Below, one piece after another: positions 4,903-42,254 of a DNA stretch of 44,781 nt. Position 1 is the stretch's first letter. Each line of letters opens with the position of its first letter. The notes under the pieces are model-generated. The model ran no database searches. It saw only the letters and a program-made list of their open reading frames with translations, and was not told where the DNA came from. Origin of the DNA: a virus; the UHGV virus genome UHGV-0214457; one strand, given 5' to 3'. The position numbers and the translations under genes are program-made.

Positions 4903-5074
4903 AATCTCTGATATAATCAGACTGAGTTATTTTTTGTATCCGGTCGTTTAGCTCTGTCAAGCTGACGACCTTTTTTATTGGCTTACCATATCCGGTGTAC
5001 CGACTAGCATTTATCATTGCCCCGGCCCGGTTGGTTCCATTGCGGCGGCGGCTCATAATATCACCGCCATGCAT
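4868..5074 (-). CDS. hypothetical protein
   Basis: ORF in the operon. Confidence 0.35.
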   Translation of the reverse strand: MHGGDIMSRRRNGTNRAGAMINASRYTGYGKPIKKVVSLTELNDRIQKITQSDYIRDYGGFQDGRKNG

Positions 5075-5179
5075 ATCACCAGCAATCCGCTTAAGACCAT
5101 CACCGCAGCGGTTAAACCGCGAATAATCATCCGGTCTTTCTGCCGCGGGCTTAAGTGTGTTTTTCCGACAGGTATGTAT

Positions 5180-5407
5180 TTAAGCTGTTTCAACAAATTT
5201 CATCTCCTTCCCGGTCAATTGCAGAAGTATCTGCAATTTTTCTATTGTCAGTTTTTGAGGGTTGGCTTTACGCTCTCTAAACGAGCTTGTGCAAAACCCC
5301 AAATACAAGGCCAGCTCATTATCATCAAAGTTATTTCTTATTTTGGCTTCTTCTATCAGTAGCCGTATGCTGTCCTTTTGCCATTCTGACGGCTTCTTAG
5401 ATTTCAC
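5180..5407 (-). CDS. hypothetical protein, possible HTH
   Basis: ORF; LALYLGFCTSSFRERK helix-like segment. Confidence 0.4.
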   Translation of the reverse strand: MKSKKPSEWQKDSIRLLIEEAKIRNNFDDNELALYLGFCTSSFRERKANPQKLTIEKLQILLQLTGKEMKFVETA

Positions 5408-5427
5408 TCTTACTTCCTCCTTAATTG

Positions 5428-5616
5428 CTAATCTTGCATCTTAGCAAAACGCTCAATATCAGTTACGCGACATTTAAAAGCTAAAGTGCCGTCTCTATCA
5501 TATAATGTTAAAAAATTTGCCTCATCTTCGATATCAACGTTGGAAAAATAGAATTCATTGCAATCAATTCCCTTTGCAAAACATTCATGAGTCTTTACAT
5601 ATACGCTTTTATACAT
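5428..5616 (-). CDS. hypothetical protein
   Basis: ORF. Confidence 0.35.
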   Translation of the reverse strand: MYKSVYVKTHECFAKGIDCNEFYFSNVDIEDEANFLTLYDRDGTLAFKCRVTDIERFAKMQD

Positions 5617-5655
5617 AATTTTTGCAACCTCCTTTTAAAATCTTAATTTGAATAC

Positions 5656-6066
5656 TCAGCACTTCTTCCCCGGTTCTGGCCGGTATGGTTCCGGCAGTGG
5701 CATCCATGCAACAACACTTTTCATTTCTTCTCTCCATGCCTTATTTTCGCTATTATCACCGTCAGCAACTATGAACCATTTTTCGCATTCATAATAGCAG
5801 TATTCAATATCGTATCCTCCAAATTGTTTTGCAAATGTTACAAGGAAAAATTTTGGTTCATCCGGCAACTGTTCCGATACTGGAATCCATCTTCGACTCT
5901 TCTTTTCTTCCAAAACAGTTATTGCCTCTTCGATAGCATAGTCTTCGGGTTCTGGATATACATATCTATGCCCAGACGCAAAAGCCGGAGCACCAATCAT
6001 ATCTGCATAATCCTGTAATGGATTTTGCATACCTTTTAGTAATTCTATTGCTTCTTGCTCTTTCAT
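5656..6066 (-). CDS. DUF551-domain phage protein
   Basis: C-terminal ...AWMPLPEPYRPE; paralog of 44483..44725. Confidence 0.6.
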   Translation of the reverse strand: MKEQEAIELLKGMQNPLQDYADMIGAPAFASGHRYVYPEPEDYAIEEAITVLEEKKSRRWIPVSEQLPDEPKFFLVTFAKQFGGYDIEYCYYECEKWFIVADGDNSENKAWREEMKSVVAWMPLPEPYRPEPGKKC

Positions 6067-10022: not shown

Positions 10023-10170
10023 GTAAAAACCGGCCCCTGCGCCAACAGGAACCGGCCTACATACCCGAAGATATGCACTATAATTCGCACCTATATTGTA
10101 CCATCTTCGGGGCGGCTTTGCAAGATATTTGCGGAGCTGTATTTTTTATACCTATTTTTAGGAAAATCAA

Positions 10171-11259
10171 TTGAAGGAGGAAAGAGAAGTGACTACAAAA
10201 GCCCCGAAAAAGAAAAAAGGAGAACTACCATCCAAAAATATCCGCGTACAATTATACTTATATACGGATGAAAAAGGTAAACGACATTACAAAAGTTTTG
10301 TTGCCCCATCACGAAAAATCGCACAAGAAATGGCAGCTAGATGGAAATTAGATATGAAGGACAAGCCCATAGAACAATACAACGTACCGGAAGAGGACGA
10401 AGAAGATATTACAGTTAATGATGCTATTGAACGCTATTTAAGCGCCAAGAGCGGTGTTTTAAGCCCTTCTACGCTTAGAGGGTACACTGGTCTACAAAGA
10501 CAGTATTTCGGCGGCGCATTTGGCCAAAAAAAGCTTTCTGAACTGACAAGTCCAGCTGTACAAATATGGGTAAGTAATTTAGCTGCAAAAAAATTATCTC
10601 CAAAGACGGTGAGAAATGCCTATGGTCTGTTATCTCCAACGCTGGAAATGTTTGCACCCGAATTAACTTTAAACGTTAAACTGCCGCAGAAAAAACGTCC
10701 TAACTTATATTGCCCAAATGACAATGATATTAAAAAGTTGCTGGACGCTATTAAAGGCACTGATTTGGAGATAGCTGTATTACTGGCTGCGTTTGGTCCA
10801 CTTAGGAGAGGGGAGATAAGCGCTCTAACCGATAAGGACGTGGATGGAAAAATTATCCATGTAAGAGATAATATGGTCAAGGGGCCAGACAATCAATGGT
10901 ACATCAAACAGCCAAAGACGGATGATAGTACACGGGATGTAGAAATGCCAGCATTTGTAATTGACCGGATATCTGAAAAAAAAGGAAAGCTGGTTGATAT
11001 GAACCCGGATTACATCACACACCGATTCGGGCGAGTACTCAAAAAGATTGACATACCCCATTTCCGCTTTCACGACCTACGGCATTATGCCGCATCCATT
11101 ATGCACGCTATAGGGATACCGGACCAATATATTTTGCAGCGGGGAGGATGGGCCAGCGATAATATTATGAAAACCGTATACAGAAATGCAATTGACTCTG
11201 AAACCGTCCGGCAAAATAAAAAAATTAATAAGCACTTTGAAAAATTGAACAGTATGTAA
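10171..11259 (+). CDS. int: tyrosine integrase (phage integrase family); probable GTG start at 10189
   Basis: C-terminal catalytic motifs HDLRHYAAS...LQRGGWAS...VYRNA; N-terminal SAM/AP2-like domain; AGGAGG RBS before GTG at 10189. Confidence 0.85.
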   Translation: MKEEREVTTKAPKKKKGELPSKNIRVQLYLYTDEKGKRHYKSFVAPSRKIAQEMAARWKLDMKDKPIEQYNVPEEDEEDITVNDAIERYLSAKSGVLSPSTLRGYTGLQRQYFGGAFGQKKLSELTSPAVQIWVSNLAAKKLSPKTVRNAYGLLSPTLEMFAPELTLNVKLPQKKRPNLYCPNDNDIKKLLDAIKGTDLEIAVLLAAFGPLRRGEISALTDKDVDGKIIHVRDNMVKGPDNQWYIKQPKTDDSTRDVEMPAFVIDRISEKKGKLVDMNPDYITHRFGRVLKKIDIPHFRFHDLRHYAASIMHAIGIPDQYILQRGGWASDNIMKTVYRNAIDSETVRQNKKINKHFEKLNSM

Positions 11260-11276
11260 TAAAACGGCATATTTTT

Positions 11277-11496
11277 CGTGTTGCATCGTGTTGCATATAT
11301 CATAAAAATTATAGTATATTCCTCCGTGATAAGCAGAGGAAGTGATGTTTAAAAACATGAAAAAACCTTGTAAATACGTTGTTTTTCCCGTATCTACAAG
11401 GTTTTATGGAAAAGCTGCTGACGGGAATCGGACCCGTAAAATACAACGGTTTTATGCGGTTTCCAGGCTCCGTGTTGCATATCGTGTTGCATATTT
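11277..11496. repeat. attP-like region: two tandem pairs of CGTGTTGCAT(AT) direct repeats (11277-11300 and 11471-11494) flanking inverted repeats (AAACCTTGTA/TACAAGGTTT at 11363-11404) and a T-arm-like hairpin (11421-11437)
   Basis: read directly; located between the convergent int and endolysin genes. Confidence 0.45.
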
Positions 11497-11547
11497 CCGA
11501 AGATGGTATACTATTTATAGAAGCGTCAGTGTAAAAATCTGGCGCTT

Positions 11548-27112: not shown

Positions 27113-27308
27113 TGATGATTCTCCTTTTCCGTTATTAGGTTATTTGTAGGTGTGTAACCGTCCACCAACGGTTGCCATTTTGTAGGACTTGACTTGTCCA
27201 AAAACGCACATGCCGGAAATTGCATCCGCTTTTCAACCTCCAGGCTGTTCACGCTATGCGCTAGAACCTGTTTCTTTTAAGGACATGTGCTATAGGAGGG
27301 AGGTCAAT

Positions 27309-27369
27309 ATAAAGAAAGAGCCAAACAAACTCTTGCATCTGTTTGGCTCTGCGTCTGGCGTCTGGCTCT
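27309..27369 (-). terminator. rho-independent terminator (11-bp stem AGAGCCAAACA/TGTTTGGCTCT plus U-run) with a 5' AGAGCCAGACGCCAGACGC flank
   Basis: read directly; located between the accessory cassette and the scaffold gene. Confidence 0.5.
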
Positions 27370-35293: not shown

Positions 35294-35581
35294 TTAATCA
35301 ACCTTACCTTTGCGCCCCATCAACATATCCAGCCCATTTGCGATTTTACATATATCGTCCGCCATCTTCTTTCGGTTTTCTGGGCTGAATGTTTCTTCTA
35401 ACGCCTCTTTATAAGCCTGTTTCAAGTCTGGATTATCTGCAAAAATCTTCTTTAATTCTTTTTTTGCACAATCTCCACATTTATCCGCTTTATAGGTCAG
35501 TTCTTTTCCACATACAGAACATCTATACTTTATCATGCGCTGTTTCCCCTTCTCATTGATAATGGGCTTGTGGCATAGCAC
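35294..35581 (-). CDS. zinc-ribbon hypothetical protein
   Basis: CSVCGK...CGDC. Confidence 0.4.
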   Translation of the reverse strand: MLCHKPIINEKGKQRMIKYRCSVCGKELTYKADKCGDCAKKELKKIFADNPDLKQAYKEALEETFSPENRKKMADDICKIANGLDMLMGRKGKVD

Positions 35582-36029
35582 CCCAGTATTTCACTTCTCC
35601 CTTTCTTCGTGCCTTGGCAGCTTCTTCTGCTGTATCATATCTCCCCAAATCCATACGTCTGCTATTAACGTATATCAAAGCTCGATATTTTCCCCTATCT
35701 GCCTCATAATGTACGCCATTATACCCGGTTCTATTCGTCCTCTGTTTTCGCTTGTTTCTGGCCTGTTCTGTTTCCGTAGCCCAATGACAGTTTTCAGGGC
35801 AATAATCTCCGTTTGTATCTTTTCTGTCAATGCTCAAATTATCAGTATATCCATTTTGCAAGGCCCATTGAATAAATTCCATTGAGTTGTTATTCCATCC
35901 CTCACAGACCTTTATTCCTCTACCACCATAATTATCATAATCCTTGTCATTCGGGTTATTGCATCTCTGACGGATACCCTGCCATATTTTATATATCCTT
36001 GGATAATTTTTCTTTGCCCCACTACGCAC
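35553..36029 (-). CDS. HNH homing endonuclease with AP2 domain
   Basis: YGGRGIKVCEGW..NGYTDNLSIDRKDT..YCPENCHWATETEQ plus AP2-like GKYRALIYVNSRRMDLGRYDTAEEAAKAR. Confidence 0.7.
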   Translation of the reverse strand: MRSGAKKNYPRIYKIWQGIRQRCNNPNDKDYDNYGGRGIKVCEGWNNNSMEFIQWALQNGYTDNLSIDRKDTNGDYCPENCHWATETEQARNKRKQRTNRTGYNGVHYEADRGKYRALIYVNSRRMDLGRYDTAEEAAKARRKGEVKYWGAMPQAHYQ

Positions 36030-37299
36030 TGTGTCCCCTCCTCATAGCCATAGGAGAAATGCTATACCGTAAGGCATCTATCCAGTGGTCATTTCCGTCT
36101 GGATAATCTGCAATCACTTCTCCGTTGCTATCAATCTCATGCTCATACTCTATAATCTCTTTGTATGCCCTTGGCGTTCTGGCTGGGTCTATGACGATTG
36201 TACGACACTGTAGCCATTCATACGTATATTTCCTACTCCCAGGCGTTACAATAGCACTACGGGCTGGAATACCAGCGTCACGAAGGTCAACAATACTTTC
36301 CTTCTCGTCCACTCCACACATAAGAGTATAATCATCGTATCCTTTTTCCTGTATCATGCGAGCCATATCAGAGTTTCTAATCTTGCACCCGCCTAATTCA
36401 TCTAATAACACAATTTTTTCTTTATTTGCTACATAGGCTGCCCGAATAAATGCTTTAGGGTCAGGCCACCACCCAAAATCCTGACCTTGATATATAGATT
36501 GATAGCTCTGTATTTCTTCATCCGTGATTGTTCTAATCTCCAGCATATCAAATATATTTGTGCCAAGCCCAACCGGCAAACCTAAATACTCATGATTATA
36601 TGCCCGCTCATTGGTGGCTTTAAGATGTTCAGCACGCTCAACAAACATTTCTCCCAGCCATTCAATCGGCACAGAACGGTAATCGCTTTTATGCCTATAC
36701 GCGCTATCGTCTGGAGTATTCACATACTGATTCGCCCAGTTGCTTTGACTGATAGGCGGGTTGAAGGATTTAAATACAACAAACTTGCTGCCACCACGCA
36801 ATACTGACTGTTCAACAGTTCGTATTTCTTCCGGTCCTGCAAATTCGTCCAGTTCCTCGAACCATAGATATTTAAAGTATCCCTTACTGGCCTTTATAGA
36901 TTTTGTTTTCTTTGCTTTGTCAAGTCCACGGAATATTATCTTTTGCCCTGTCGGCTTATAAACAAATCGGTATGGGCTTGTACGGGATTCCCATAATTCC
37001 GTTACTCCCAGTGCATCTATGGCCCACTGTATCTGCTCAAATACTGATTCTCCAATGGTTACGGCATATTTACGGAATATAACAGCATTGGCCTCTGGGT
37101 CGTCCATCATACCTAGCACAATCTCCGCTGATATAAAAGAGGACTTTGCGGAACCTCGCCCGCCGTACAGGTCGTAATATGTATGATTACCGTCCAGAAT
37201 ATCCCAGTGAACGTCATAGAAGGATGGGGCGATTACGTCAGTCAGTTTAACAATTTCACCCATAATCTTTGTTCTACCTTTCTTCCTTTGGTATATCAT
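36022..37299 (-). CDS. terL: terminase large subunit (PBSX/Terminase_3-like)
   Basis: Walker A LYGGRGSAKSS; 425 aa. Confidence 0.85.
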   Translation of the reverse strand: MIYQRKKGRTKIMGEIVKLTDVIAPSFYDVHWDILDGNHTYYDLYGGRGSAKSSFISAEIVLGMMDDPEANAVIFRKYAVTIGESVFEQIQWAIDALGVTELWESRTSPYRFVYKPTGQKIIFRGLDKAKKTKSIKASKGYFKYLWFEELDEFAGPEEIRTVEQSVLRGGSKFVVFKSFNPPISQSNWANQYVNTPDDSAYRHKSDYRSVPIEWLGEMFVERAEHLKATNERAYNHEYLGLPVGLGTNIFDMLEIRTITDEEIQSYQSIYQGQDFGWWPDPKAFIRAAYVANKEKIVLLDELGGCKIRNSDMARMIQEKGYDDYTLMCGVDEKESIVDLRDAGIPARSAIVTPGSRKYTYEWLQCRTIVIDPARTPRAYKEIIEYEHEIDSNGEVIADYPDGNDHWIDALRYSISPMAMRRGHSA

Positions 37300-37684
37300 T
37301 CAAAATAGTAATACCTTCTGTGTTATCTCCCCTTTTAGTGTTATCCATAAACTTATCAACCACAATTCCCATAGCTGTTGCAATTTGTGAAATAGTAGCG
37401 TTTTCTAATTTCTTTGGGTCTGCTAACTTCTTTAAATATTCATCAATGATTCCCTGCGCCTGTTCTTTTCGGGAATCCATATAAGCTAACATGTCCGCTG
37501 TGTTCTGTTCCTTTTTTTGTTTGCATTTTTGTGCAATATCTGCATTTTGTGTGCATATTTTTTTGACTGTGTTCAGCGCCACTCCAAATCTCTTTGCTGT
37601 AGCATTGTAGCTTCCAGTCTCTACATAATCAGCAATAATATCTTTTTTCTGCTTATCCGTCAGTCTGGAAGCCACAATCACCAC
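37274..37684 (-). CDS. terS: terminase small subunit (HTH)
   Basis: position, size, N-terminal HTH TGSYNATAKRFGVALNTVKK. Confidence 0.5.
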   Translation of the reverse strand: MVIVASRLTDKQKKDIIADYVETGSYNATAKRFGVALNTVKKICTQNADIAQKCKQKKEQNTADMLAYMDSRKEQAQGIIDEYLKKLADPKKLENATISQIATAMGIVVDKFMDNTKRGDNTEGITILNDIPKEER

Positions 37685-38131: not shown

Positions 38132-38434
38132 TCATCCTTTCCACCTCCCAAACAATGTCATTAACCGCCTATATTCATCCAACGTTTTTCTTTGATACCC
38201 GTAAAAGTCATCCCGTTTAATTGGTATATTCTTTCGCTTGCTCATCTTGTCATATCCGATATTACTTACAAGGCTTTCGTATATCTCCACCTCCAGGCCA
38301 GGAGCGGAGGATATGGCGCACTGGAACAATGTTAGCTTATCTTCTACGCTGGCGGTCTGGCAGTATTCTTTTATGCGTCTGGCTTCATCATCCGTAATTC
38401 CATAATCGCTATAGTTCTTGTCCCTGGTCCTCAT
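38132..38434 (-). CDS. hypothetical protein
   Basis: ORF. Confidence 0.4.
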   Translation of the reverse strand: MRTRDKNYSDYGITDDEARRIKEYCQTASVEDKLTLFQCAISSAPGLEVEIYESLVSNIGYDKMSKRKNIPIKRDDFYGYQRKTLDEYRRLMTLFGRWKG

Positions 38435-38445
38435 AGCCCTCCTTC

Positions 38446-39492
38446 CTACACATTAACTCTTTCTCTTACTGAACGAAGAGTGCGCGGGTTAGACTGTGCA
38501 TAATAACGTGCCGTAACTCCTGGGTCTGCATGTCCCATAATTTCCTGTATGGTCCCAATATCAACTCCTCTATTTTTCAGATTCATTCCCAGCGTCTTGC
38601 GTGACTTATGCGGATATACCCGGCATGTTAGTTCAGCTCTCTTTCTTATGGTTTTCAATATCGCCCGAAATCCACAAGTAGTCATCTTTCCATACGGTTT
38701 TCTGGAGCGTGGGAACATATATAGACAATCATCTTTCCTGCTGTCCAAATACAGGCCATAATAATGCCGCGCATCATCATCCAGATAGATTGTGCGATAT
38801 TTTCCGCTTTTCTCTCCCTGTATACATATGTCGCCGGTTCTCATATCTACCTGGTCCAAGGCTATTTCCGCAATTTCTCCTATCCTGGCCCCAGTACTGC
38901 GCAGCACCTCCAACAATGCTCTCTCCCGGATATTTTTACATGCATCTCTTAATCTTGCTGATTCTTCCGGGTTGTAATAGTCTATAGGCTTAACTGGGAC
39001 TTTTTTAGCAGGTATAGACTCTACGGGATTATCTGTAATAAGCTTTTCAAGACGCATCCATGTAAAGAATGCCGACAGAAAACGGCGCTCGTTATTATAA
39101 GTACTGGGCTGGTTTTTCTTACCACCACTGGACACATTTCTAATTTCATACCGCGATAAATACCAATCAATATCCGTGGTATCCATCTGATCCAGTGATT
39201 TTGTGCTTATCTCTGTCAGCAATCTTCGTATGGCGTTAAGATAGTTTTCTTTGGTTCCTCTTGCTAAATCGCGTTTTTTGACCAGGAATAATTGTATTAT
39301 GTACTGATTCCTCTGGCTTATATCATCCTTTCTTTCTGCTGGAAGTGTAGTTATTTCCTCCATATTCACCCTTACTAATTCCTGCTGCATTACATTTTGA
39401 AGAATGGTAAGAGTCTGCTGCTCCATGATATATAAGGACATTGCTACCAGTACATTGTTGATTATTTCAGCTTTTATTGTCTGTGTACTCAT
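38446..39492 (-). CDS. second tyrosine recombinase (phage integrase/XerC-like); probable ATG at 39492, 349 aa
   Basis: RIGEIAEI...HKSRKT...MGHADPGVTARYY catalytic motifs; GAGGAGG RBS before the ATG; the track ORF extends to a GTG at 39594. Confidence 0.75.
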   Translation of the reverse strand: MSTQTIKAEIINNVLVAMSLYIMEQQTLTILQNVMQQELVRVNMEEITTLPAERKDDISQRNQYIIQLFLVKKRDLARGTKENYLNAIRRLLTEISTKSLDQMDTTDIDWYLSRYEIRNVSSGGKKNQPSTYNNERRFLSAFFTWMRLEKLITDNPVESIPAKKVPVKPIDYYNPEESARLRDACKNIRERALLEVLRSTGARIGEIAEIALDQVDMRTGDICIQGEKSGKYRTIYLDDDARHYYGLYLDSRKDDCLYMFPRSRKPYGKMTTCGFRAILKTIRKRAELTCRVYPHKSRKTLGMNLKNRGVDIGTIQEIMGHADPGVTARYYAQSNPRTLRSVRERVNV

Positions 39493-39523
39493 AATTATAT
39501 CCTCCTCATTCGTATTGATTTTC

Positions 39524-39555
39524 ACGTCTGAGTAAGGTATAATATACTCAGACGT
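39524..39555. promoter_or_regulatory. perfect 11-bp inverted repeat ACGTCTGAGTA-N10-TACTCAGACGT directly upstream of the second recombinase gene (recombination core site or operator)
   Basis: read directly; the spacer contains TATAAT. Confidence 0.5.
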
Positions 39556-39667
39556 ATTTACGGGAGCGGCGGAATCATCTTGGCGGGTGACCACCGCTCA
39601 GTTTTTATTCTGTGCATATAATTTTTTCCTCAATTTGTTTTTTCTTAGGTTATAAAATTTCAGTTTG

Positions 39668-39916
39668 TTACTTTCTTTTCCAATATTTACAAACTGATTT
39701 TCCAGTGATATTTTTTATTTGCTCTCTGAAATCTCCTCCAAAAGGCAAATCATAATCATCTTCTAAGTCCGAAGAGTGTTTACATACAGGATAAACATAT
39801 GATGGTAGTTCACATCTTCCATATTCACCATATTGTCCATTAAAACAATCCCATTCTTTAAACAATTTACATGATTCACAATTTTTATTGCATTTCTTTT
39901 TCTGTCTACTATTCAT
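39668..39916 (-). CDS. Cys-rich hypothetical protein
   Basis: ORF. Confidence 0.35.
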   Translation of the reverse strand: MNSRQKKKCNKNCESCKLFKEWDCFNGQYGEYGRCELPSYVYPVCKHSSDLEDDYDLPFGGDFREQIKNITGKSVCKYWKRK

Positions 39917-39935
39917 TCTCTATCTTCTCCAAATT

Positions 39936-40346
39936 TCAGTTTAGCAGATTAGGGCTATCATAAATATTCCCCATAATAACAAGTTCTTCACAACAAGACA
40001 AATAATCATAATTTGTTCCATATTGGTCTTTTCCATTTGTCCCCTTAAAATTCAGCTCTGAGTCATCCCAAATAATCTTTCTAACATTGACTTGTCCATC
40101 ATAGACACATTCGACAATGTCACCTTCCCATATCTTTAAACCGTTTTTATCAGTTAATCCGGTATACTGGCAGATGGTGGACGGTTCTATCTCAATCCAT
40201 TCGCCATATCTTTCATCATATCCATGATACAGAGCATCACTGTTAAATATCGGAAGGATATAATGACATTTACGACAGAGTACATAATACCCTTCCACCC
40301 ATTCGCCATTATCACGGCCCTTTGCTTTAAATAATATTTCTCTCAC
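39936..40346 (-). CDS. YopX-family phage protein
   Basis: N-terminal MREILFKAKGRDNGEWVEG.., C-terminal VIMGNIYDSPNLL. Confidence 0.6.
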   Translation of the reverse strand: MREILFKAKGRDNGEWVEGYYVLCRKCHYILPIFNSDALYHGYDERYGEWIEIEPSTICQYTGLTDKNGLKIWEGDIVECVYDGQVNVRKIIWDDSELNFKGTNGKDQYGTNYDYLSCCEELVIMGNIYDSPNLLN

Positions 40347-40378
40347 TTTATAGCTCCTTTCGTTTAATTGGTTAAATG

Positions 40379-40843
40379 CTAATTTTCCAACATCGGCAGC
40401 ATTGCTGGCATCTGCCCCGTCTGGTATGCCATCTCAATCTGCGGTGCAATCCATTCTCCAGCCGTCCGTCCATCTGGCAATACAATATCGTACAAAAACT
40501 CCCGCTCCACCGTGCTGATACCAGCCTCCACCGCCTCCAGCTTAGCCTTGACAATTAAATACAGTGCCCTCCAACGGCTTCGGCAGGCTTGCTCCCATGC
40601 AGTATGCGCCGCATCATCCGCCCGGCGTTGCCCTCGGCCCGGAGTATACCAAAATTCTTTCGCTGACTTGTCTGGGAGAGGAAGCAGAAATCGAATCTGC
40701 CGCCCGGACATTGTAAATCCGATAACCGCCATATTAGCTTTGTATCCGCTCACAAACTGTTCTGCTCCGTGTGTTTGAACAAGCTCTTCTATATTTGCCT
40801 TCGTCCGTGCCACGGATACCGTAGTTTTTTCAGCATATGCCAT
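40379..40843 (-). CDS. hypothetical protein on a GC-rich island
   Basis: ORF; local GC far above the window average. Confidence 0.4.
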   Translation of the reverse strand: MAYAEKTTVSVARTKANIEELVQTHGAEQFVSGYKANMAVIGFTMSGRQIRFLLPLPDKSAKEFWYTPGRGQRRADDAAHTAWEQACRSRWRALYLIVKAKLEAVEAGISTVEREFLYDIVLPDGRTAGEWIAPQIEMAYQTGQMPAMLPMLEN

Positions 40844-40877
40844 CTTGTACCTCCTTCTCTATCAAATGCTAATTTTG

Positions 40878-42254
40878 TTATGCAAACTTTAATTGTATTT
40901 CACTATCATCAATCCTCATATTTGGCATTCTCTCTCCAATTTTCAGATATGCACAATTGGCAGATACCAATGCCTGTGCCATAATTGGCACCACACTATT
41001 TCCAATTCTTGCCACCTGCTCACTAACAGGGTATGGCTTGCCCTCAATATCCCGGTTGAGTATATAATCCACTGGAAAACCCTGCATTTTTTTAAGTTCT
41101 TCCGGCATTAGCATTCGGAGAAAAATATCTTTCAAAATATATTGCTCCCCATCAATATCAGTGATTACATTAACAAGACCGAACCGATCCTTTGTTGTAA
41201 TAGTCCCCAATGGTCTTACTAACTCTTGTCCGCAACCAGTGCCGTAATACTTAATCAAAAATGCGGATATAAGCCCGAAATGCCCTGGTGATGTCGTGAT
41301 TGTGTGTAAAGGTTCATCGCATCCCTGCCCCGTCCCAGTTTTATAAAATTTTGTGACGAACGCCGTTACTAAACCATATCGGTTACTGGTATCAATTGTC
41401 TTTATCGGCTCCGTCAGAAGCTGCCCGCGTGAATCTCCTTCCCGCGTCTCACCATGGTACTGAATCATAAAAGCGACGGCATTCTGATTATGCACCGTAT
41501 AAGGTTTCGGATTATTCACCACGTACTTTATGTACCCGTTTGCAATCCGCTTCATGGTGGCGTCTGCAAGTGGTTTCTTCCGGTCGAATATGGAACGCCC
41601 CAAATCCGACCAATCAATATAATTTCCGCATTCCAGCCACTTCAACCGGCCATCGGATCCACTCTTATTGTGTGTCGGCTCCGGCCATATAATCGGATTC
41701 CCGTCTCTCCGGAAAATTGCATACCAGCGCCGTCGTGTTGTCGGCGCTCCGTAATCTGCTGCTACCAGTTCCCGGCTGTCGAAATCATATCCCAGCTTTT
41801 TCATGGCTGCTATAAATCGTTTATATTCCTCTCCAGCCCTTTCTTTTATTGGGTACCCTGCCTCGTCCAGAGGCCCCCACTGTTGTATTTCCTCGACGTT
41901 TTCCATCAGCACAACGGCAGGAAGTATTGCTTTAGCGTGCTTGTACACTGCCCACGGAAGGATTCTGAGTCCCTTGTTCCGCGGCTGTCCGCCTTTAGCC
42001 TTGCTATGGCTTGTGCAATCTGGGGATGCCCACATAAGCGCTACATGACGGCCCGCAACATACTTTTTAAGGTCAACCTTGAATATATCCTCTGTCAAAT
42101 GCAACGTATCCGGGTGATTAACTTTATGCATCCGAATCGCCTGCGGGTCATGGTTGATTGCAATATCAACCGGTCGCCCCAGTGCCATCTCTATTCCTAC
42201 GCTTGCCCCTCCGCCACCTGCGAAACAGTCAATAATCAAATCTCTCATTTTCAA
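40878..42254 (-). CDS. DNA (cytosine-5) methyltransferase with repeated target-recognition-like segments
   Basis: motif I DCFAGGGG, Cys motif SPDC, ENV, motif X GNSV; three tandem ~30-aa repeats (Y/FGL..AF..KYYGTG.GQ...PL.TITT). Confidence 0.8.
   Translation of the reverse strand: MKMRDLIIDCFAGGGGASVGIEMALGRPVDIAINHDPQAIRMHKVNHPDTLHLTEDIFKVDLKKYVAGRHVALMWASPDCTSHSKAKGGQPRNKGLRILPWAVYKHAKAILPAVVLMENVEEIQQWGPLDEAGYPIKERAGEEYKRFIAAMKKLGYDFDSRELVAADYGAPTTRRRWYAIFRRDGNPIIWPEPTHNKSGSDGRLKWLECGNYIDWSDLGRSIFDRKKPLADATMKRIANGYIKYVVNNPKPYTVHNQNAVAFMIQYHGETREGDSRGQLLTEPIKTIDTSNRYGLVTAFVTKFYKTGTGQGCDEPLHTITTSPGHFGLISAFLIKYYGTGCGQELVRPLGTITTKDRFGLVNVITDIDGEQYILKDIFLRMLMPEELKKMQGFPVDYILNRDIEGKPYPVSEQVARIGNSVVPIMAQALVSANCAYLKIGERMPNMRIDDSEIQLKFA

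Follow-up and report, generated by a model that had tools for sequence, protein, structure and literature searches.

Why should a temperate phage carry a second tyrosine recombinase gene just ahead of its packaging genes, and what is the perfect inverted repeat that precedes it? These questions are raised by UHGV-0214457, a stretch of 44,781 nucleotides (nt), here called the window, which is a complete, circularly permuted temperate phage genome whose relatives cross the join from 44781 to 1 uninterrupted. The gene, int2 (38446..39492, minus strand), encodes Int2, a Xer-like recombinase of 348 amino acids recognised from its Pfam domains, its catalytic residues and its AlphaFold2 (AF2) model. 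The annotated proteins of Enterocloster bolteae include one identical to Int2, and the phage is a temperate Enterocloster (Lachnospiraceae) phage. A preliminary description of this DNA had suggested that the region 38446-42254 may be a separately acquired block or a Cre/loxP-like dimer-resolution system, with the repeat as its site or as an autoregulatory operator. Our comparison of relatives points elsewhere. The repeat is most likely the stem of a regulatory RNA hairpin in the int2 mRNA leader and not the DNA target of Int2, and the leader may form a cis-antisense translational control cassette that gates a catalytically intact Int2 before the packaging genes, the recombinase acting on something other than the repeat. 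We give this overall reading, which is drawn from sequence comparison, a probability of about 0.55.

The repeat, ACGTCTGAGTA-N10-TACTCAGACGT, has its arms at 39524-39534 and 39545-39555 and lies 32-63 nt upstream of the int2 ATG at 39492, just as it had been described. First-order Markov simulations give an expectation of 0.24 per genome for perfect inverted repeats that have arms of 11 nt or more and spacers of 3-20 nt, and the window has such repeats at three loci. Such a repeat is just mildly unlikely by chance, and its reality therefore rests on conservation in relatives. A second copy of the arm, whose existence had seemed worth looking for, was found nowhere in the window, even with one mismatch allowed.

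We assembled 48 distinct leaders from Lachnospiraceae prophages whose recombinases are 49-100% identical to Int2, and all 48 share one architecture: an A-tract, a hairpin (H1) with a variable stem and the loop CCGnCCAArG, a short linker, a second hairpin (H2) and the ribosome-binding site. The latter is read from the sequence in the window as GAGGAGGA (39500..39507, minus strand), and its position is kept in all leaders. H2 is the reported 11-N10-11 repeat itself (39524..39555, minus strand), delimited by a repeat scan, covariation and tests of pairing with the Shine-Dalgarno (SD) sequence, to which its 3' arm resembles a complement. The arms of H2 covary, with 24 different stems across the 48 leaders; in an alignment of 17 long-loop sequences, 96% of the cells are paired and seven of the nine pairs show compensatory changes, a level that none of 500 shuffles reached and that slid controls also fell far below. 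The loop, which is the spacer of the repeat, measures 10, 13, 14, 16, 17, 19 or 21 nt among homologous loci, and the long-loop lineages gain bulged inner pairs in the manner of RNA helices. Non-Watson-Crick pairs are distributed unevenly, with eight G-U pairs possible on the int2-sense strand and one on the antisense strand. Rfam contains nothing relevant to 39350-39800 at E<=10, nor did it match at the motif positions in seven other loci. We also considered the H2 loop as a rolling-circle nick site, since it resembles TAGTATTAC, and rejected this because a Rep gene is present in just one lineage and the promoter model described below explains the TTG located 17 base pairs (bp) away.

That promoter, P_as (39515..39543, plus strand), was recognised by a promoter scan and by conservation. 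It is of the sigma-70 type (TTGATT-17-TATAAT), faces away from int2 and has its -10 element in the loop of H2. The pattern TTGnnn-17/18-TAnnnT is present opposite int2 in 48/48 unique leaders, immediately beside the 5' arm of H2, with a spacer of 17 nt in 47 and 18 nt in one. The -10 reads TATAAT in 32, TATACT in 15 and TATGAT in 1, and 21 leaders carry a TGn extension. In 44/48 leaders the -10 lies 0-3 nt from the H2 arm, and in the other four it overlaps the arm by 2 nt. Downstream of P_as stands H1 (39564..39599, plus strand), a 9-bp hairpin with arms at 39564-39572 and 39591-39599, a conserved loop and a run of five T at 39602-39606, which we read as the terminator of a countertranscript. 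H1 also covaries, with 30 different stems, compensatory changes in 8/9 pairs and a score that 0/500 shuffles equalled. Its wobble pairs number 10 on the antisense strand and 5 on the sense strand. On the sense strand, at least five A occur in the 9 nt 5' of the hairpin in 48/48 leaders, which would place a U-tract after the antisense hairpin, and a terminator scan gave a match at 39582-39599. P_as and H1 with its T-tract together predict a countertranscript of about 60 nt (39550..39608, plus strand) that would start about 7 nt after the -10 and end in the T-tract, and we infer that such a small RNA exists. Its predicted fold has an energy of -20.3 kcal/mol (z = -2.6) and exposes UUGG in the loop, a motif of the YUNR type that is typical of antisense RNAs.

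How could this RNA act on int2? The 5' arms of H2 are purine-rich and resemble SD sequences (AAGGA, GGGAG, UGAG), while the 3' arms are their pyrimidine complements (purine fractions 0.59 vs 0.41). When the 5' arm is withheld from folding, the true SD is paired in 23/23 representative leaders, and its pairing to the 3' arm exceeds that of arm-shuffled controls in 22/23 (0.62 vs 0.42). In the full leader, the SD is free in 14/23 representatives; the 141-nt leader of the window folds with z = -4.9. We propose that, when H2 is folded, its purine-rich 5' arm would hold the pyrimidine-rich, anti-SD 3' arm and leave the ribosome-binding site free. The predicted countertranscript would be the complement of H1, of the linker and of the outer portion of the H2 5' arm; because it covers this portion, its binding should release the anti-SD arm. 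Pairing would then open H2, and the freed arm would mask the ribosome-binding site. In this scheme Int2 would be made only under strong sense transcription, such as that of lytic growth, and control of int2 would presumably be exerted on translation.

Several observations weigh against this model. The anti-SD effect is modest over composition-matched controls, and in the window's own 141-nt leader the SD is already masked in the minimum-energy fold, so the polarity of the switch is uncertain and ON and OFF could be reversed. The window's own H1 contains a G-U pair compatible with the sense strand, and a scan of the leader for a sense-strand sigma-70 promoter that would serve int2 returned none that was convincing. 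Four lineages with recombinases 53-62% identical to Int2 (L076, L077, L087 and L095) have no hairpins, so the leader is not obligatory. Finally, covariation and a strand-biased tolerance of G-T pairs would suit a folded single strand of DNA as well.

Other features of the leader deserve mention in their own right. The H1 loop has no second copy in the window. The exact 14-nt loop (CACCCGCCAAGATG), with unrelated stems, is also present in loci L142/L145/L180, L129, L183, L158/L222/L237 and L178, where it precedes genes for another tyrosine integrase, for two S24 (CI/LexA-type) repressors and for products without a known function; near-consensus promoters converge on it from either side in L158 and L222. 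Most matches outside int2 leaders in a search of viral contigs for this exact loop are consistent with chance, and about three independent cases have stems of at least 8 bp, against about 0.9 estimated by chance; a distribution of the loop beyond int2 is thus no more than suggestive. A mini open reading frame (ORF) inside H1, encoding MIPPLP, was considered as a leader peptide; since its ATG is missing from lineages with the CCAAAGTT loop, this was rejected. In addition, a palindrome resembling a LexA (Cheo) box, GAACATATGTRCG, lies 2-21 nt upstream of H1 in 17/50 unique leaders (L064, L065, L067, L068-L075, L085, L090, L092, L007 and L034 carry it, as do L087 and L095) and has a degenerate form in the window. 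Also encoded in the phage family is an 83-amino-acid protein that consists of the LexA DNA-binding domain alone (at about 254-505 of the window, minus strand). The box and this protein may tie int2 or the late genes to an SOS-type control.

What kind of protein is Int2? Pfam finds Phage_integrase (E=1e-28) and an N-terminal SAM-like domain (SAM_4), and the AF2 model, with a predicted local distance difference test (pLDDT) score of 78.8, shows a two-domain fold with core-binding and catalytic parts. All seven catalytic residues (R203, E206, K228, H295, R298, H321 and Y331) are invariant in 30 homologues, and R203, E206, H295 and R298 remain unchanged down to 29% identity. Y330, beside Y331, is likewise invariant in the 30 homologues; a clade at 40% identity has F-Y where Int2 has Y-Y, which marks Y331 as the nucleophile. 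With the full catalytic set and the two-domain fold, Int2 is, as judged from its sequence and predicted structure, a member of the tyrosine recombinase superfamily. Foldseek matched the model to XerA, Brujita Int, Tn1549 Int, lambda Int, IntI, XerH and Cre with E values of 1e-12 to 1e-6; the best folds were XerA, Brujita Int and Tn1549 Int, and the closest solved relatives are XerA, XerC-like and XerD proteins. The catalytically degenerate repressors MrpR/YopR and SroF came lower in the list. Int2 stays under the cut-offs of all NCBIfam Xer equivalog models (XerA, 139.7 vs 220 bits; XerD, 97.4 vs 329.6; XerC, 93.6 vs 335; XerS, 45.5 vs 267) and gives a partial match to the integron-integrase model TIGR02249 (60.9 vs 265 bits); its nearest NCBIfam model is the XerA/integron-integrase family. 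Because all seven catalytic residues are kept, Int2 is probably an active enzyme and not a domesticated repressor. The family is large (563 homologues at E<1e-20), and the index of a contig collection lists the exact protein in 242 blocks; the plasmid homologues are all at most 31% identical, carry the generic name 'xerA' and are uninformative. The analysis found no recombination site for Int2, which may act at a site other than the repeat, in dimer resolution or cyclisation. One could speculate, by analogy, that it interconverts monomer circles and multimers; in classical work on lambda, Int is reported to be able to make packageable dimers.

An intact recombinase beside an inverted repeat invites the view that the repeat is its crossover site, in a module comparable to Cre/loxP or XerS/difSL whose task would be to make multimers or resolve them, or else to cyclise the genome, each arm binding one monomer. 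The 11-N10-11 geometry gives a centre-to-centre distance of 21 bp, equal to that of loxP; the arm sequences differ between Int2 lineages; and the catalytic residues of Int2 are all kept. The repeat also adjoins the recombinase gene as difSL adjoins xerS, and the central region of difSL, at 11 bp, is unusually long (PMC5357621). However, among close homologues (recombinases 50-97% identical) the spacer length ranges between 10 and 21 nt, which is unlike a fixed cleavage geometry, so the fixed-length central region of a Cre/lox or Xer/dif site is not found here. Moreover, it is the spacer that holds the invariant bases, which read as a promoter, the arm substitutions obey strand-specific G-U rules, the long-loop lineages add bulged inner pairs as RNA helices do, and no second copy of the repeat exists in the window. 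We consequently consider the Cre/loxP-like site that had been proposed quite improbable. An operator in double-stranded DNA is somewhat easier to entertain, although still unlikely: a dimeric protein, either Int2 or another phage regulator, would sit on the arms and shut the outward promoter that they bracket. The arms do flank the -10 and the start site of P_as, and they form a related family (CTGAG, TTAAG, CTAAG) that drifts with the Int2 lineage. A single dimer geometry is, however, a poor fit to arms whose spacing varies and which shift relative to the -35 between lineages; the wobble bias of 8 to 1 also speaks against an operator, and Int2 keeps seven catalytic residues, unlike MrpR. Of the autoregulatory operator suggested previously, the notion of a regulatory element tied to int2 survives, while the covarying arms and the G-U count (8 vs 1) recast that element as an RNA hairpin. 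The covariation of the stems, the variable loop length and the strand-specific G-T tolerance would also suit a third possibility, in which the repeat and H1 are folded single-stranded DNA substrates, similar to attC, that Int2 recognises through structure and not sequence, and the nearest NCBIfam model is indeed the XerA/integron-integrase family. Nevertheless, the score of 60.9 against 265 bits is far under the integron-integrase cut-off, promoter and terminator signals already explain the conserved bases, and we know of no single-stranded stage for tailed double-stranded DNA phages, all of which makes this possibility very remote.

A further alternative concerns the whole locus: the leader with int2, with or without the neighbouring gene orf100, or even all of 38446-42254, could be a separately mobile hitchhiker that inserts into phages by means of Int2. 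Loci with Int2 relatives (47 from IMG/VR and 46 from genomes) were compared. The conserved block spans 39666-38132 and comprises the leader, int2 and orf100 (about 1.5 kilobases, kb); it recurs in dozens of phages with unrelated upstream genes. Its patchy distribution across phages with different terminases, its absence from phages with 60-70% identical TerS proteins, and a rolling-circle Rep gene that follows int2 in one lineage would all agree with mobility. Against this, the upstream homology breakpoints differ per locus (39598, 39642-39648, 39666 and 39933, with unrelated DNA beyond about 39666), the orientation of the cassette and its place before the packaging genes are constant, and a search for flanking direct or inverted repeats found none; nor did we find convincing long-range inverted or direct repeats that would bound an invertible or excisable segment. 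A 13-nt overlap at the junction of loci L008-L010 was considered as a recombination site and rejected, as it reflects merely similar ORF ends. The island that carries a DNA methyltransferase, upstream of the cassette, assorts independently of it, and we judge such a hitchhiker to be hardly credible. The 3.8-kb stretch is instead a set of independent mosaic pieces at the early/late junction, namely a GC-rich (guanine-plus-cytosine-rich) moron, small variable genes and the leader-int2-orf100 cassette. The separately acquired block of the preliminary description thus holds as a compositional and evolutionary mosaic and not as one unit, a conclusion that also came from comparison with relatives lacking the module, in which the cassette and the methylase island vary independently.

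The GC-rich part, 40379-42254, was correctly described as richer in GC than the rest: it has 47.6% GC against a genome mean of 40.9%, is the most GC-rich stretch of such length in the genome, and has a value that just 0.25% of windows of its size reach (standard deviation, 2.9 points). Its tetranucleotide divergence is unremarkable (top 7.6%). It contains orf154 (40379..40843, minus strand; 52% GC), which matches phrog_17260, and the gene of an orphan C5 cytosine DNA methyltransferase (40878..42248, minus strand; 46% GC). The identity of the latter, as previously called, is borne out by Pfam (PF00145, DNA_methylase, E=4e-24), by the N-terminus DCFAGGGGAS, in which the FxGxG motif is present, and by the NCBIfam dcm model TIGR00675, for which it scores 77.5 against a superfamily cut-off of 100.65. 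This gene has its first ATG at 42248, and the position 42254 given before corresponds to a TTG further upstream in the ORF. Only near-identical genomes combine Int2 with the methyltransferase and orf154, and most relatives with Int2 lack them; orf154 is found otherwise in L009 and L010. The island has the look of an ordinary moron, and nothing evident ties its function to Int2. Between the island and the cassette lie orf82 and a YopX-family gene (39668..40346, minus strand; Pfam YopX), variable early genes outside the cassette whose presence differs among relatives. At the end of orf82, an inverted-repeat scan found a 9-bp inverted repeat followed by AATTTTAT on the minus strand (39660..39697), a possible, weak terminator candidate; homology breakpoints place the upstream border of the conserved cassette at the same spot (39666).

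As had been stated, int2 lies upstream of the terminase genes, about 760 nt before terS (37274-37684) and on the same, minus strand as terS and terL (36022-37299). Within 4 kb downstream of int2, 27 diverse loci have terS and terL of at least three unrelated families, as well as portal genes; a relative 41% identical to Int2 also lies upstream of a 74%-identical TerL. The gene directly after int2 is a sigma-region-4-like regulator (phrog_36) in five lineages, the rolling-circle Rep gene in one, and orf100 (38132..38434, minus strand) in the window. By synteny, orf100 accompanies int2 in the close group and belongs to a small unnamed family. Its AF2 model is helical and confident (pLDDT 92.7); it matched nothing in Pfam, PHROG or NCBIfam, it has no fold match in the PDB with E<1, and no similarity was detectable between it and the sigma-like gene that replaces it in relatives. 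The placement of int2 suggests expression at the early-to-late transition, and we infer that Int2 is co-expressed with the late genes. In L213 (IMGVR_UViG), the H1 and H2 leader stands directly before the 3' end of int2 (…VYPHKMRKTLGMNLKNRKVDIG); the recombinase is internally deleted here, and loss of Int2 therefore seems possible. In L002 (Terrisporobacter phage TPELB_ph1, PP197244), a 29%-identical Xer-like recombinase is encoded at 4989-5984, between a tail-fibre-region gene and the holin; this phage also has a serine integrase, and the extra recombinase is again in the late module. Downstream, in some otherwise identical relatives (L052, L054 and L056), an ORF with NUMOD4 and HNH_3 domains interrupts terL, apparently through insertion of a homing endonuclease, and the intact terL of the window is followed by an HNH/AP2-type endonuclease gene (35553-36029).

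It is tempting to extend these observations into a broader and rather doubtful proposal: that the leader represents a class of phage riboregulator not described so far, in which a sense hairpin carries the -10 of a convergent promoter in its loop and a countertranscript of about 60 nt, closed by a hairpin whose near-invariant loop is UUGGnCGG, sets a threshold switch at the early-to-late boundary. This switch would gate the recombinase and, where present, the late sigma-like activator, and the recombinase would remodel replicated DNA for packaging, for example by interconverting monomers and multimers.

Integration itself is the task of another enzyme. Int1 is a tyrosine integrase, separate from and unrelated to Int2 (int1, 10189..11259, plus strand), whose gene abuts host genes in five ENA contigs; within about 480 nt after it come the genes of lactate dehydrogenase, of a type II secretion-like operon and cysS. 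The window and the prophage junction cease to be identical at about 11448. The phage side supplies the 3' part of the host tRNA-Thr(GGT) at 11412..11448, recognised from this break in identity and from the tRNA found at the junction, and so rebuilds tRNA-Thr. Since Int1 stands at the host junction and the tRNA is restored there, Int1 with a phage attachment site (attP) at about 11412-11448 is the integration system. Int2, in contrast, is interior to the prophage in every contig examined and never at a junction; the true integrase is Int1, and the earlier statement that the genome already has an integrase at its attP is correct. The attP region (11260-11540) contains repeated CGTGTTGCAT motifs on both sides, at about 11277-11297 and 11471-11495, and a 17-N10-17 palindrome at 11362-11405, while an 18-nt inverted repeat (10093-10110 / 11497-11514) brackets int1. 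On one scaffold (ENA ERZ28604266 scaffold_11; L058/L059), two copies of int1 lie 44.5 kb apart, with lysis genes of the phage after one of them (the attP form) and host DNA after the second, which indicates a tandem double lysogen or an assembly merging circular and integrated forms.

Elsewhere in the window, two Rfam families match side by side on the minus strand above their gathering scores, RAGATH-21 (27205-27291, 83.5 bits) and GP20-b (27136-27199, 40.9 bits), and a perfect 11-nt inverted repeat at 27317-27350 adjoins them. In the region of the replication genes, four tandem copies of a 21-nt unit (CATTATCATTTACATTATCAT), with a spacing of 12-18 nt, lie at 1602-1664 and may be iterons.

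The closest functional analogy for the leader is offered by countertranscripts, familiar from the RNA-OUT/RNA-IN pair of IS10 and from the copy-control RNAs of the plasmids R1, pT181 and pIP501. The int2 leader shares with these systems a predicted short, terminator-ended RNA, a strong outward promoter inside a 5' leader, a YUNR-type stem-loop (UUGG) and a target leader whose alternative folds involve the ribosome-binding site. It differs from them in that the -10 of P_as lies in the loop of a target-strand hairpin, the antisense RNA overlaps neither the SD nor the AUG, and the regulated gene encodes a Xer-like phage recombinase; here, moreover, the RNA is a prediction and the leader is without an Rfam match. 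Phage P1 encodes Cre, an extra tyrosine recombinase that acts on loxP and is not an integrase. Int2 is likewise additional to the integrase and has the same fold; unlike P1, however, this phage integrates through Int1 into tRNA-Thr and has no plasmid life, and we found no lox-like site of conserved geometry. XerS/difSL and XerH/difH resemble the int2 locus in pairing a Xer-like recombinase of about 350 amino acids with an inverted repeat directly upstream of its gene (PMC5357621). Int2 departs from XerS/difSL in its score (45.5 bits against the 267 cut-off), its spacer of 10-21 nt and its location in a prophage and not at the chromosome terminus.

Other recombinases and recombinase-like proteins of Firmicutes phages can also be compared. 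MrpR/YopR of SPbeta and SroF of phi3T are repressors with a recombinase fold, and MrpR keeps 3/7 catalytic residues and does not recombine DNA (PMC10516654). Int2 has the same tyrosine recombinase fold, comes from a temperate Firmicutes phage and counts MrpR and SroF among its structural matches, but with 7/7 catalytic residues it lacks the degeneracy of a repressor of that type. The nearest counterparts of the enzyme are extra recombinases whose role was stated to be unknown and which occur in late or structural modules of Tyrovirus (gp50), of Psychrobacillus phage Perkons and of Lactococcus 949-group phages, and in Tyrovirus an inverted repeat neighbouring the recombinase, with a conserved 11-6-11 arrangement, was proposed as its site (PMC9703825). 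As in these phages, a Xer-like recombinase stands here amid lytic-cycle genes, contrary to a role in lysogeny. Int2 nevertheless belongs to another family than gp50 and lies upstream of terS, whereas the Tyrovirus gene is between the neck and tape-measure genes; and, in contrast to the conserved 11-6-11 repeat of Tyrovirus, the Int2 repeat behaves as an RNA hairpin. Our literature search returned nothing specific on a recombinase upstream of the terminase or on an antisense-controlled phage recombinase. What is new here is a candidate antisense RNA cassette together with a well-delimited family of orphan recombinases.

The extra tyrosine recombinases among the lytic genes of Firmicutes phages are a recognised loose end (PMC9703825). 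The comparison made here advises caution: before an inverted repeat beside a recombinase gene is annotated as the site of that enzyme, comparative data are needed. Human-gut Lachnospiraceae prophages widely carry members of the Int2 family, together with a predicted control element of unusual clarity. Should the countertranscript prove real, these prophages would supply a new and easily testable antisense RNA motif, as well as a handle for switching Int2 on and off and so learning what it does.

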